28,003 nt of DNA from the IMG/VR virus record IMGVR_UViG_2859827302_000010; one strand, written 5' to 3'. Position 1 is the first letter of the stretch, and each line of letters opens with the position of its first letter. The notes under the pieces are model-generated. The model did not search any database. It was not told where the DNA came from and saw only the letters and a list, made by a program, of their open reading frames with translations. The position numbers and the translations under genes were made by a program. Below are positions 14,520 through 17,976 of the stretch, piece by piece. The DNA comes from a virus. Lineage: Duplodnaviria > Heunggongvirae > Uroviricota > Caudoviricetes.

Positions 14520-14591
14520 TGAAGTGGCACACTGAATTTGGCCACCTGAACAGAGGTGATATGCTCACCTCAGAACAACACAGGTGCTCCA

Positions 14592-14894
14592 ATGAAAAAA
14601 AGAAATTTTAGCGCAGAGTTTAAACGCGAATCCGCTCAACTGGTTGTTGACCAGAAATACACGGTGGCAGATGCCGCCAAAGCTATGGATGTTGGCCTTT
14701 CCACAATGACAAGATGGGTCAAACAACTGCGTGATGAGCGTCAGGGCAAAACACCAAAAGCCTCTCCGATAACACCAGAACAAATCGAAATACGTAAGCT
14801 GAGGAAAAAGCTACAACGCATTGAAATGGAGAATGAAATATTAAAAAAGGCTACCGCGCTCTTGATGTCAGACTCCCTGAACTGTTCTCGATAA
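14592..14894 (+). CDS. IS911 OrfA
   Basis: [53 protein letters not shown]… (helix-turn-helix plus leucine zipper); frameshift heptamer A AAA AAG at 14843-14849. Confidence 0.95.
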
Positions 14895-14920
14895 TCGGGA
14901 AACTCAGAGCGCATTATCCT

Positions 14921-15760
14921 GTGGTCACACTCTGCCAAGTGTTCGGGGTTCATCGCAGCAGCTACAGATACTGGAAAAACCGTCCTGAAAAACCAGACGG
15001 CAGACGGGCTGTATTACGCAGTCAGGTACTTGAGCTACATGGCATCAGCCATGGTTCGGCCGGAGCAAGAAGCATCGCCACAATGGCAACCCGGAGAGGC
15101 TACCAGATGGGACGCTGGCTTGCTGGCAGGCTCATGAAAGAGCTGGGGCTGGTCAGCTGTCAGCAGCCGACTCACCGGTATAAACGTGGTGGTCATGAAC
15201 ATGTTGCTATCCCTAACTACCTTGAAAGGCAGTTCGCCGTGACCGAGCCAAATCAGGTGTGGTGCGGTGATGTGACCTGTATCTGGACGGGTAAGCGCTG
15301 GGCGTACCTCGCCGTTGTTCTCGACCTGTTCGCAAGAAAACCAGTGGGCTGGGCCATGTCGTTCTCGCCGGACAGCAGGCTCACCATGAAAGCGCTGGAA
15401 ATGGCATGGGAAACCCGTGGTAAGCCCGGTGGGGTGATGTTCCACAGCGATCAGGGCAGTCATTATACGAGCAGGCAGTTCCGGCAGTTATTGTGGCGAT
15501 ACCAGATCAGACAGAGTATGAGCCGGCGCGGAAACTGCTGGGATAACAGCCCAATGGAACGCTTCTTCAGGAGTCTGAAGAACGAATGGATGCCGGTGGT
15601 GGGTTACGTAAGCTTCAGCGAGGCAGCTCACGCCATAACGGACTATATCGTTGGATATTACAGCGCACTAAGACCGCACGAATATAACGGTGGGTTACCC
15701 CCAAACGAATCGGAAAATCGATACTGGAAAAACTCTAACTCGGTGGCCAGTTTTTGTTGA
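14921..15760 (+). CDS. IS911 OrfB (DDE domain; made as the OrfAB fusion by -1 frameshift)
   Basis: 279-aa ORF in the -1 frame relative to orfA, with an IS3-family DDE core. Confidence 0.95.
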
Positions 15761-15775
15761 CCACTTCAGGCGACA

Positions 15776-15991
15776 TTATTCACCTCTCGCAGCCTTACGC
15801 TTATCTTCTCTTATTTTGAAATACAGATTCGTCAGATAAGTCAGAAGCCCCAGAAGCAGACTTCCCAGCACACCAATCGCAGCCCACTGTGATGGACTGA
15901 CCTGATCCAACCACTGCAAAAACCAGTAGCCGGCACTGCCGGCGGAGGTGCCGTAGGCAATGCCCGTTGAAATTTTGTCCATGGATTTCAT
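15776..15991 (-). CDS. S: Class II pinholin, phage 21 S (S21-71)-type
   Basis: 71-aa protein [45 protein letters not shown]… with the dual-start motif (Met1/Met4) and two transmembrane segments; good RBS (GGAGGTGAGG). No endolysin follows: IS911 copy A begins 8 bp after the stop. Confidence 0.85.
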
Positions 15992-16283
15992 AGCCTCACC
16001 TCCGCAAATAACGGATGGCGTAGTTTTACACTGAGAAATGAAAGGGATTTGAAAAGAAAAAAACGCAAAAGCGGGCGAAACGATATATACAGTAAGGAAA
16101 GCACTCTATCCAACAAACCACCCACAGTTAATCGGAATAAAAGCAGAGTGCTTATGAATGATCGCACGCCCGAAGGTTAGTATTTCTGCACAGCAATTTT
16201 GCAAAAAAAGGCGATCATTCATAACTTAAACGTCTTTCAGTCACTCCGGGATTTCCCATCATCGCAGACTGAAAGACTCTGAC

Positions 16284-16358
16284 TGGAGCGGGCAGCGGGA
16301 ATCGAACCCGCATCATCAGCTTGGAAGGCTGAGGTAATAGCCATTATACGATGCCCGC
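16284..16358 (-). tRNA. tRNA-Gly (anticodon UCC)
   Basis: Reverse complement GCGGGCATCGTATAATGGCTATTACCTCAGCCTTCCAAGCTGATGATGCGGGTTCGATTCCCGCTGCCCGCTCCA; cloverleaf with GTTCGATTCC T-arm and encoded CCA; resembles host glyT-type tRNA. Confidence 0.85.
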
Positions 16359-16361
16359 ATA

Positions 16362-16437
16362 TGGTGCCGACTACCGGAATCGAACTGGTGACCTACTGAT
16401 TACAAGTCAGTTGCTCTGCCTGCTGAGCTAAGTCGGC
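16362..16437 (-). tRNA. tRNA-Thr (anticodon UGU)
   Basis: Reverse complement GCCGACTTAGCTCAGCAGGCAGAGCAACTGACTTGTAATCAGTAGGTCACCAGTTCGATTCCGGTAGTCGGCACCA; perfect acceptor stem, anticodon loop CTTGTAA; one A-C mismatch in the T-stem. Confidence 0.75.
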
Positions 16438-16439
16438 GC

Positions 16440-16516
16440 TGGCCCACCACCGAGGACTCGAACCTCGCACCGTCAACTTAGAAGGTTGATGCTCTATCCG
16501 GATGAGCTAGTGGTGG
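16440..16516 (-). tRNA. tRNA-Arg (anticodon UCU), with a C1-G72 acceptor pair
   Basis: Reverse complement CCACCACTAGCTCATCCGGATAGAGCATCAACCTTCTAAGTTGACGGTGCGAGGTTCGAGTCCTCGGTGGTGGGCCA; parses as a 77-nt cloverleaf (anticodon loop CTTCTAA); architecture parallels argU. Confidence 0.65.
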
Positions 16517-16517
16517 T

Positions 16518-16594
16518 TGGTGGCCCTTGCTGGACTTGAACCAGCGACCTGGCGATTATGAGTCGCTCGCTCTGACCAACTGAGCTAAAGGGCC
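16518..16594 (-). tRNA. tRNA with CAU anticodon, ileX/ileZ-like (Ile2/lysidine type; formally Met)
   Basis: Reverse complement GGCCCTTTAGCTCAGTTGGTCAGAGCGAGCGACTCATAATCGCCAGGTCGCTGGTTCAAGTCCAGCAAGGGCCACCA; the anticodon stem-loop GCGACTCATAATCGC and T-arm match my recollection of E. coli ileX. Confidence 0.8.
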
Positions 16595-16682
16595 GGAGGC
16601 AGAATAATAACCATATGTCATCACATCTGCAAACTCATCTGACCACCAGCACGTTTAACGTCCTGTGCCGTTTTTCATTTCA

Positions 16683-16712
16683 GGTATAAAAAAACCCGCA
16701 TAAAGCGGGCTC
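16683..16712 (-). terminator. Intrinsic terminator (tR-prime-like) upstream of the tRNA cluster
   Basis: On the minus strand: GAGCCCGC-TTTAT-GCGGGT hairpin followed by TTTTTTT; positioned as in lambdoid late operons where Q-dependent readthrough of tR-prime expresses tRNAs and lysis genes. IS911 copy B starts 16 bp upstream. Confidence 0.55.
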
Positions 16713-16735
16713 TTTCAAATGTCCATGTGAAGTGG

Positions 16736-17575
16736 TCAACAAAAACTGGCCACCGAGTTAGAGTTTTTCCAGTATCGATTTTCCGATTCGTTTGGGGGTA
16801 ACCCACCGTTATATTCGTGCGGTCTTAGTGCGCTGTAATATCCAACGATATAGTCCGTTATGGCGTGAGCTGCCTCGCTGAAGCTTACGTAACCCACCAC
16901 CGGCATCCATTCGTTCTTCAGACTCCTGAAGAAGCGTTCCATTGGGCTGTTATCCCAGCAGTTTCCGCGCCGGCTCATACTCTGTCTGATCTGGTATCGC
17001 CACAATAACTGCCGGAACTGCCTGCTCGTATAATGACTGCCCTGATCGCTGTGGAACATCACCCCGCCGGGCTTACCACGGGTTTCCCATGCCATTTCCA
17101 GCGCTTTCATGGTGAGCCTGCTGTCCGGCGAGAACGACATGGCCCAGCCCACTGGTTTTCTTGCGAACAGGTCGAGAACAACGGCGAGGTACGCCCAGCG
17201 CTTACCCGTCCAGATACAGGTCACATCACCGCACCACACCTGATTTGGCTCGGTCACGGCGAACTGCCTTTCAAGGTAGTTAGGGATAGCAACATGTTCA
17301 TGACCACCACGTTTATACCGGTGAGTCGGCTGCTGACAGCTGACCAGCCCCAGCTCTTTCATGAGCCTGCCAGCAAGCCAGCGTCCCATCTGGTAGCCTC
17401 TCCGGGTTGCCATTGTGGCGATGCTTCTTGCTCCGGCCGAACCATGGCTGATGCCATGTAGCTCAAGTACCTGACTGCGTAATACAGCCCGTCTGCCGTC
17501 TGGTTTTTCAGGACGGTTTTTCCAGTATCTGTAGCTGCTGCGATGAACCCCGAACACTTGGCAGAGTGTGACCAC
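16736..17575 (-). CDS. IS911 OrfB
   Basis: 279-aa protein identical to the copy A OrfB. Confidence 0.95.
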
Positions 17576-17601
17576 AGGATAATGCGCTCTGAGTTTCCCG
17601 A

Positions 17602-17904
17602 TTATCGAGAACAGTTCAGGGAGTCTGACATCAAGAGCGCGGTAGCCTTTTTTAATATTTCATTCTCCATTTCAATGCGTTGTAGCTTTTTCCTCAGCTT
17701 ACGTATTTCGATTTGTTCTGGTGTTATCGGAGAGGCTTTTGGTGTTTTGCCCTGACGCTCATCACGCAGTTGTTTGACCCATCTTGTCATTGTGGAAAGG
17801 CCAACATCCATAGCTTTGGCGGCATCTGCCACCGTGTATTTCTGGTCAACAACCAGTTGAGCGGATTCGCGTTTAAACTCTGCGCTAAAATTTCTTTTTT
17901 TCAT
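17602..17904 (-). CDS. IS911 OrfA
   Basis: [19 protein letters not shown]…, identical to the copy A OrfA. Confidence 0.95.
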
Positions 17905-17976
17905 TGGAGCACCTGTGTTGTTCTGAGGTGAGCATATCACCTCTGTTCAGGTGGCCAAATTCAGTGTGCCACTTCA

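Follow-up and report, generated by a model that had tools for sequence, protein, structure and literature searches.

The stretch of DNA analysed here is IMG/VR record IMGVR_UViG_2859827302_000010, a tailed-phage (Caudoviricetes) sequence of 28,003 nt that is called the window throughout, and the feature of interest is a 959-nt fragment of a lambdoid late region held between two copies of the insertion sequence (IS) IS911, copy A on the plus strand and copy B on the minus strand. All of the contents of this fragment lie on the minus strand, namely an intrinsic terminator, four tRNA genes and a holin gene (Table 1). The original prediction, made from the letters of the sequence alone, had described in this interval a terminator, tRNAs with anticodons CAU, UCU, UGU and UCC, and a phage 21-type pinholin with a dual start, and each was found where it had been placed. 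It had also described the fragment as opposite in orientation to the plus-strand early genes, which is the case, the fragment being antisense to cro and ydaT (26823–27456).

The window is 100 per cent identical to the Shigella chromosome CP026828.1 over 20,119 nt, with no mismatches over 13,282 nt in the stretch that reaches past the window end, and it occupies approximately positions 4,010,480–4,038,482. A close relative with the same junctions is CP001063, and because this is the chromosome of S. boydii CDC 3083-94 it provides the Shigella species context. Related loci (given L numbers below) are flanked by modABC-ybhA and, at the opposite end, by pgl-ybhD-ybhH, where ipaH adjoins pgl. An essentially intact, ipaHb-bearing prophage sits at exactly this site in Escherichia coli FDAARGOS_944 (NZ_CP065613.1 4286289–4328586; L034/L035), in the order int, xis, gam, recE, ydaE, rha, cI-like, cro, ydaT, O, P, further genes, Q (DUF1133), four tRNAs, holin, lysozyme, Rz, terminase, portal, head, neck, sheath, tape measure, baseplate, fibres, ipaH, pgl, and it is likely a living relative of the ancestor of the Shigella remnant. 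A sister prophage in E. coli FDAARGOS_943 gives the best match to the late and tail genes, at 98.5 per cent over the 959 bp and 99.5–99.7 per cent over the tail block.

The tail genes, the early genes (24722–27628), the integrase piece and the 959-bp fragment are thus the remains of one ipaH-carrying prophage, since all of them match the prophages of FDAARGOS_944 and FDAARGOS_943. The window is evidently a dead, IS-riddled lambdoid prophage that carries ipaH and a myovirus-type tail and lies between ybhA and pgl. It resembles the two E. coli prophages in attachment site, integrase (99.6–99.7 per cent), immunity region (98 per cent), tRNA cluster and ipaH-side end, and it differs from them in that they are complete or nearly so, whereas at least 18 kb is missing from the window and part of it is inverted; the structural module of FDAARGOS_944 is also a different mosaic allele, with less than 75 per cent nucleotide identity to the window.

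Contents of the fragment

Homology to intact relatives passes straight across both IS911 boundaries of the fragment at 98.5–99.5 per cent identity. Alignment to intact prophages places the Q-side break 61 nt past the Q stop and 14 nt ahead of the terminator stem, and the R-side break 8 nt inside the endolysin gene (ATGTCGCC/), in keeping with the earlier claim that the Q/pR' side had been cut by IS911 B and the endolysin side by IS911 A. The terminator consists of a 13-bp hairpin followed by U7, with a folding energy of −18.9 kcal/mol (z = −4.6) that none of 200 shuffled sequences reached; it was not picked up by a simple terminator scan, and the call is based on folding. In intact relatives it sits 61–110 nt past the Q stop, and by this position the hairpin would be the equivalent of tR', with the late promoter pR' presumably within the missing part. 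The window lacks Q as well as the −35-like hexamer (TTGACG) that follows closely on the Q stop. Between the orphan terminator and the first tRNA there is a promoter-like sequence, TTTGCA-18-TATTAT (16604–16633, minus strand), which is conserved in intact relatives and could drive the tRNA cluster independently of pR', at a match level expected by chance in the scan (2 found versus 1.5 expected).

All four tRNAs score 56–70 bits against the Rfam tRNA model. The CAU tRNA is called Met by ARAGORN and tRNA-Ile (lysidine type) by PGAP on an identical sequence, and its acceptor stem carries C4–G69 and C5–G68, which are presumably tRNA-Ile2 determinants. In E. coli FDAARGOS_943 (L001 8365–8435) the fourth tRNA has the anticodon TAC and is annotated as tRNA-Val rather than Gly (TCC), an apparent anticodon switch.

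The holin matches PF04971 (Phage_holin_2_1) with E = 1.1e-35 and 121.8 bits (cut-off 26), shares 68 of 71 residues (96 per cent) with S21 of phage 21, and begins MKSMDK..., the same start as that of the S21-71/S21-68 pair annotated in OL657228.1. Its family membership by sequence holds, and the lysis cassette around it is incomplete: where a signal-arrest-release (SAR) endolysin would directly follow an S21 pinholin, 8 nt of R are left, and no PF00959 lysozyme was found among the window open reading frames (ORFs) examined. Of the elements of a lambdoid late operon, the terminator upstream of the lysis genes is in place, and Q and pR' are missing. Deprived of pR', Q and endolysin, and lying behind an intact terminator, the holin is probably silent. 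At least 80 per cent of the fragment is covered by one stretch in 382 of 5,426 complete E. coli genomes.

Table 1. Features of the window, in order of position (IRL and IRR, left and right inverted repeats of IS911; copy 3, the third IS911).
Feature	Position	Strand	Basis or match
Prophage right-end remnant, C-terminal part of DUF4376 tail-fibre gene, ipaH side	1–395	−	99.5% to L035 28366–28760 (next to ipaHb, FDAARGOS_944); 99.7% to L005
IS66-family element, flanks mismatched (tail-fibre remnant / sheath gene C-terminal part)	396–2834	+	ORFs 467–868, 865–1212, 1261–2799; flanks mapped on L046
Myovirus-type tail gene block, sheath gene C-terminal part to truncated DUF2612 gene	2835–13034	+	99.5–99.7% collinear with L046 14359–23010; Pfam DUF3383, SLT, gpV apex
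IS2, 1331 bp, truncating DUF2612 tail gene	13047–14377	−	99.7% over 1331 nt to L032 3070–4400; ORFs of 136 and 301 aa
Fragment C, 142 nt, IS911 positions 1038–1179, inverted relative to A, abutting IRL of A	14378–14519	−	Repeat finding, position mapping
IS911 copy A, full length, IRR end toward fragment, flanks TTC / GGC	14520–15768	+	Repeat finding
Endolysin gene R, first 8 nt (ATGTCGCC)	15769–15776	−	Alignment to FDAARGOS_943, where the gene continues ATGTCGCCATCATTACGC...
Class II holin gene, S21 pinholin type, intact, 71 aa, Met1/Met4 dual start	15776–15991	−	PF04971
Four tRNA genes, transcription order CAU (Ile2 type), UCU (Arg), UGU (Thr), UCC (Gly)	16284–16594	−	ARAGORN; PGAP names on identical sequences
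Intrinsic terminator, tR' position, hairpin + U7	16687–16717	−	Folding
IS911 copy B, recombinant: IRL end with integrase flank (CAG), IRR end with tR' flank; flanks ATG / CTG	16728–17976	−	
Integrase gene N-terminal-side fragment, cut by IS911 B and by IS1	17977–18314	−	99.7% identical to L034 11989–12326 inside intact int; weak Pfam matches to Arm and SAM-like integrase domains
IS stack, prophage left arm	18315–24663		IS1 18315–19082, ydaE-like ORF, split IS600, IS110-family and IS66-family elements
Immunity/early region: Rha/Ash (−), cI-like helix-turn-helix repressor 26339–26746 (−), cro 26823–27050 (+), ydaT-like 27034–27456 (+)	24722–27456		Pfam
Replication (O-like) gene, first 82 nt, cut by IS911 copy 3	27547–27628	+	97.5% identical to L011 through position 705
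IS911 copy 3, running off window; reciprocal recombinant: truncated O gene (O') at IRL; CAG, integrase C-terminal part and ybhA at IRR outside window	27629–28003	+	

IS911 copies and the inversion

Copies A and B are inverted arms of 1249 nt each, identical at 1248 of 1249 positions, with the sole difference at IS position 911 (T in A, C in B), and copies annotated by PGAP as 'IS3-like element IS911 family transposase' in E. coli genomes are 99.8 per cent identical over 1249 nt. The properties of IS911, a member of the IS3 family, are retained in the length of 1249 bp, the TG...CA ends (TGAAGTGGCAC...GACCACTTCA), the orfA/orfB organization and the 3-bp duplication at the insertion in int described below. 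The ORFs of copy A span 14556–14894 and 14921–15760, identical copies elsewhere carry the HTH_Tnp_1 and rve Pfam domains, and the A6G motif AAAAAAG at IS position 324 is the predicted orfA/orfB frameshift site. The copies here are unlike a regular IS911 insertion in that one of them abuts an internal IS911 fragment and none of the three in or at the window keeps its own flank pair.

That neither A nor B has a 3-bp duplication had been noted before and was borne out by their flanks (TTC/GGC around A, ATG/CTG around B); the left flank of copy 3 is CTG and its right flank falls outside the window. Tests on the window's own flanks failed alike for simple insertion, for inversion between A and B, for replicative-type inversion and for transposition of the whole unit. 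Two features went beyond the original prediction: the left flank of A is the 142-nt internal IS911 piece, and B is bordered on its right by the N-terminal side of the prophage integrase gene (intN).

The missing duplication is recovered once flanks are re-paired between copies, as CAG adjoins both the IRL of B and the IRR of copy 3 and occurs singly in the intact integrase gene. The intact reference, taken from E. coli FDAARGOS_943/944, reads GGGCGCTTTTATCAG/ACATTTTTAAAAC (...TTATCAG/ACATTT); the window at B reads ...TTTTATCAG/TGAAGTGGCAC (intN-CAG/IRL of B); and in CP026828.1, 875 nt beyond the window end, the IRR of copy 3 reads ...CACTTCA/CAGACATTTTTAAAAC (CAG-ACATTT-intC), the sequence that follows having been checked as the integrase C-terminal part (intC). 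Joined with one CAG, the two integrase halves yield an open reading frame that matches the intact gene of both E. coli genomes in a single piece at 99.6 per cent. In related Shigella genomes intC adjoins ybhA, on the IRR of an IS911 whose IRL holds the truncated O gene.

Inverted IS copies that have swapped flanks reciprocally are the textbook mark of an IS-mediated inversion, and both this exchange and the parental pairings in relatives were found. Locus L040 retains intN/IS911/intC together with O-side/IS911/tR', and L033 retains O'/IS911/tR' with early and late genes co-oriented; the recombinant pairings are intN/IS911/tR' in 10 assemblies and O'/IS911/intC in 12. Because one CAG of the duplication is found on the IRL flank of B and the other on the IRR flank of copy 3, and because L040 and L033 confirm the parental pairings, the flanks demonstrate an inversion in which the ancestors of B and copy 3 recombined homologously and flipped the 9.65-kb block 17977–27628. 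The block comprises the integrase N-terminal fragment, the cI-like gene, cro and ydaT, up to the truncated O gene, and its inversion accounts for the antisense orientation of the fragment to cro and ydaT. At least nine other assemblies still show the fragment collinear with the neck and tail genes downstream of it, the arrangement of intact prophages, and it was therefore never flipped between A and B.

The original prediction had proposed an IS911-mediated inversion or deletion that stranded a holin with no endolysin. The class of mechanism and the loss of the endolysin both stand, and what does not is the implied pairing of A with B and the segment between them, the partners being B and copy 3 and the segment the 9.65-kb block. 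It had further supposed that matching 3-bp duplications in a longer context would speak against such an event; one flank pair (CAG, at B and copy 3) does match in this way, yet it supports inversion.

Two candidate leads on the junctions were set aside. An 11-nt match of the tR' flank to the intC flank turned out, on reading the sequence, to be a gapped chance similarity, and the L033 integrase, considered as an uninterrupted target, ends 80 bp before the site, where an IS66-family element cuts it, and is uninformative for the duplication.

Deletions at the fragment ends

Both ends of the fragment are evidently deletion junctions. On the Q side, the IS911 between O' and tR' is bordered by unlike triplets (CTG versus CAT), and about 8.56 kb of the intact relative L011 is missing, with the loss of O, a DnaB-type helicase, DUF1627, DUF977, hok, DUF1367, ybcO, Q and pR'. 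The B-side junctions are common to at least 10 Shigella assemblies. In L040 and L045 the tR' junction is the common one and the O-side junction lies 99 bp further upstream, and in L026, L027, L029 and L032 an IS600 end directly adjoins the IRL of the tR'-bearing copy, with 17977–24635 removed. The IRL of the tR'-bearing IS911 has thus three left-hand partners across strains (window 27628, 27529 and the IS600 end; L040 10668–10730, L032 7091), and the IRR junction is constant. Given three different left-hand fusions in different strains, it looks as though deletions next to the IRL end have happened repeatedly. An IS911 inside Q (L036/L038), considered as a third nested deletion end-point, was rejected as an independent insertion about 500 bp upstream of tR' of a 98.8 per cent IS911 allele.

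On the R side, all genomes but the source strain carry a truncated copy, A' (positions 530–1249, or 735–1249 in one group), whose junction lies about 10 nt ahead of the first neck gene. Measured against FDAARGOS_943, the A' junction removes L046 1100–11763, or 10,664 bp including a 1.26-kb IS600 of that reference, so that the net loss is about 9.4 kb and takes in R, Rz, terminase, portal and capsid genes. In the source strain the IRL side of A instead meets IS911 1038–1179 in inverted orientation, then IS2, then the tail block, which is cut in the DUF2612 gene and reads toward A. The ORF across the tail/IS2 junction (12750–13133) occurs in only one contig of the assembly index, CP026828.1. The simplest account would be that full-length A arose by recombination of A' with another full-length IS911 that had inserted in an older IS911 remnant. 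Most of the structure is old and inherited across a Shigella lineage, rather than a private or ongoing rearrangement, and only the outer side of A is strain-specific.

Just past the terminator there is a 5-bp TGAAA duplication (16673–16682, fragment positions 46–55) that occurs in about half of the related Shigella loci and is absent from intact E. coli prophages. Apart from this duplication, all Shigella loci examined have the same 959-bp sequence. Both TGAAA groups include inverted and uninverted genomes.

Proposed history and alternative explanations

There is strong reason to think that the locus is, overall, best explained as an inherited IS-deletion scar combined with an inversion in which a third IS911 was the partner. 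The history would begin with insertion of IS911 into the integrase gene and duplication of CAG, as the re-paired flanks attest. A second IS911 in opposite orientation would have come to connect the O-like gene, at codon 27, with a site lying between pR' and tR', at a cost of about 8.6 kb (O, P, nin-type genes, Q and pR'), whether by IS-adjacent deletion or by recombination of two direct copies. The two inverted copies would then have recombined to flip the 9.65-kb block, an event likewise attested by the flanks, and so have produced B (intN/tR') and copy 3 (O'/intC). IS911 A would have come to lie 8 nt into R, mostly as the truncated A' just upstream of the neck genes. The deletion junctions are observed directly, and the mechanisms that produced them are inferred. 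In the source strain only, recombination with a further IS911 may have generated the full-length A, together with the IS911 fragment, the IS2 and the inverted tail block.

Several points weigh against this history. The order of events is inferred from end states, and the crossover could not be mapped from single-nucleotide differences among 27 IS911 copies, in which informative sites are too few and noisy. The presence of inverted and uninverted genomes in both TGAAA groups makes a history with a single inversion too simple: either the block flipped repeatedly or the TGAAA duplication arose repeatedly. The arrangement of full-length A, fragment C and IS2 comes from one assembly only and could be a single-assembly error; the junction ORF is known only from the source genome. 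The silence of the holin and the tRNAs is an assumption.

A simpler inversion, in which recombination between A and B turned the 959-bp fragment in place and might be turning it still, has an obvious substrate in two nearly identical inverted repeats 959 bp apart, and would be in line with the window, where the fragment runs antisense to the early genes as well as to the tail block. It is nonetheless very unlikely, given that the flank test fails (TTC versus CAT, GGC versus CAG), that every other genome has the order of intact prophages, reading from tR' to S toward A' and then on to the neck and tail genes, and that among the genomes compared the IS911 with the integrase flank always bears tR' and never the truncated R gene (R'). 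The conflict with the orientation of the early genes is, moreover, fully explained by recombination of B with copy 3. The same two complete IS911 copies, with IRL ends outward and cargo between them, also have the form of a composite transposon that could have brought the tRNAs and the holin to this site. This is the least credible of the explanations weighed: the unit has no flanking duplication (TTC at left, CTG at right), on its outer side B adjoins the integrase of the prophage itself and A' is joined to neck genes of the same prophage, none of 23 contigs places the unit in an unrelated context (it always lies between the integrase fragment and the neck/tail genes), and A is truncated and lacks an IRL in nearly all genomes. 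The density of repeats raises the prospect of an assembly artefact in which 1.25-kb repeats were collapsed or mis-joined, the more so as the IS2–C–A side comes from one assembly. The recombinant junction pairs recur, however, in at least 10 independent assemblies, among them a 12-kb draft contig that spans IS66-intN-B-fragment-A'-neck, and an artefact therefore appears improbable in the extreme.

Less remote, and compatible with the scar and the inversion, is that the tRNA cluster was kept because it is useful, reading the rare codons AUA, AGA/AGG, ACA and GGA for AT-rich virulence genes, with the holin riding along. The four tRNAs are intact in all of about 25 Shigella loci examined, and the holin has been disrupted by IS elements in three independent ways; IS600 cuts it to 63 aa in L040 and L045, and IS1 and IS2 part it from the tRNAs in L026, L027, L029, L032 and L047, where 28 nt of coding sequence are left. 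These disruptions in other strains speak against a need for the holin, in line with the scar explanation. The promoter-like sequence, which lies past the terminator and directly 5' of the first tRNA, could serve such a cluster. A fragment with zero substitutions among Shigella genomes gives no power to detect selection, however, three hits that all fall outside the 311 bp of tRNA in a 959-bp fragment are not significant, and the promoter match is at chance level, so that retention for use is considered unlikely. A combined reading is given about the same low weight, in which the tRNA cluster is selected cargo with its own promoter that aids translation of AT-rich virulence genes and, separately, the 9.65-kb block between B and copy 3 may still flip in populations, given that both orientations occur in both TGAAA sub-lineages.

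With the deletion scar and the inversion through copy 3 as the preferred explanation, the fragment is functionally a scar and not a device, and the events are of an already known kind, ordinary IS-driven prophage decay in Shigella. The locus is a base-resolved example of IS911 scrambling an ipaH-carrying prophage in this genus and matters little beyond annotation. The genes for integration, replication, late activation, lysis and packaging have been removed, and the effector gene and the tRNA cluster stay. In practice, conflicts of orientation around IS elements should be resolved by re-pairing flanks beyond the nearest two copies, and annotation of the orphan holin should mark it as belonging to a defective cassette.

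Relation to phage 21 and to IS expansion in Shigella

Phage 21 and many E. coli prophages share this layout of a terminator followed by tRNAs and an S21-type holin. The late/lysis region of coliphage 21 runs Q21, pR', terminator, tRNAs, S21, R21 (SAR endolysin) and Rz/Rz1, and the window has the same order of terminator, tRNAs and 71-aa dual-start holin; in phage 21 the annotated −35 of pR' lies 7 nt past the Q stop and the tRNAs follow directly after the annotated terminator, whose position is also that of the hairpin in the window. The R start overlaps the holin stop (TAATG) in intact relatives and likewise here. In contrast to phage 21, only the middle piece is present in the window, with Q, pR', R and Rz gone, and the tRNA sets differ, with four here (Ile2/Arg/Thr/Gly) versus Asn/Thr in phage 21. 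The Q of intact relatives is a DUF1133 protein with 24 per cent identity to Q21, and the pR'/terminator DNA of phage 21 is not alignable with that of intact relatives, so that pR' could not be placed by homology.

The expansion of IS elements, and the deletions and rearrangements that they mediate, are a documented hallmark of Shigella, and IS1, IS2, IS600 and IS911 are four of the five IS that have expanded in all Shigella species (Hawkey et al. 2020, PMC7373316). All four are found in the 28-kb window, where they account for the gene losses and rearrangements. The locus is not described in that study, whose main text does not contain the word 'prophage'; here the event is resolved to the base.

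Other features of the window

The tail block is interrupted by IS1 at 4151–4918 and 8326–9093. The proteins of the element at 396–2834 carry IS66 Pfam domains in L003. Its two flanks belong to two separate IS66-family copies in L014/L015, and for this reason the copy in the window would likewise be recombinant.

At the junction of IS2 with the tail gene, the first 12 nt of IS2 (TGGATTTGCCCC) are doubled in tandem (13035–13058), and the extra copy does not occur in the intact tail gene. The immunity/early region is 98 per cent identical to that of the intact prophages at L034 and L043. In the IS stack of the left arm, IS600 is present in two parts (19364–20298 and 24325–24663), with the nested IS110-family and IS66-family insertions between them.

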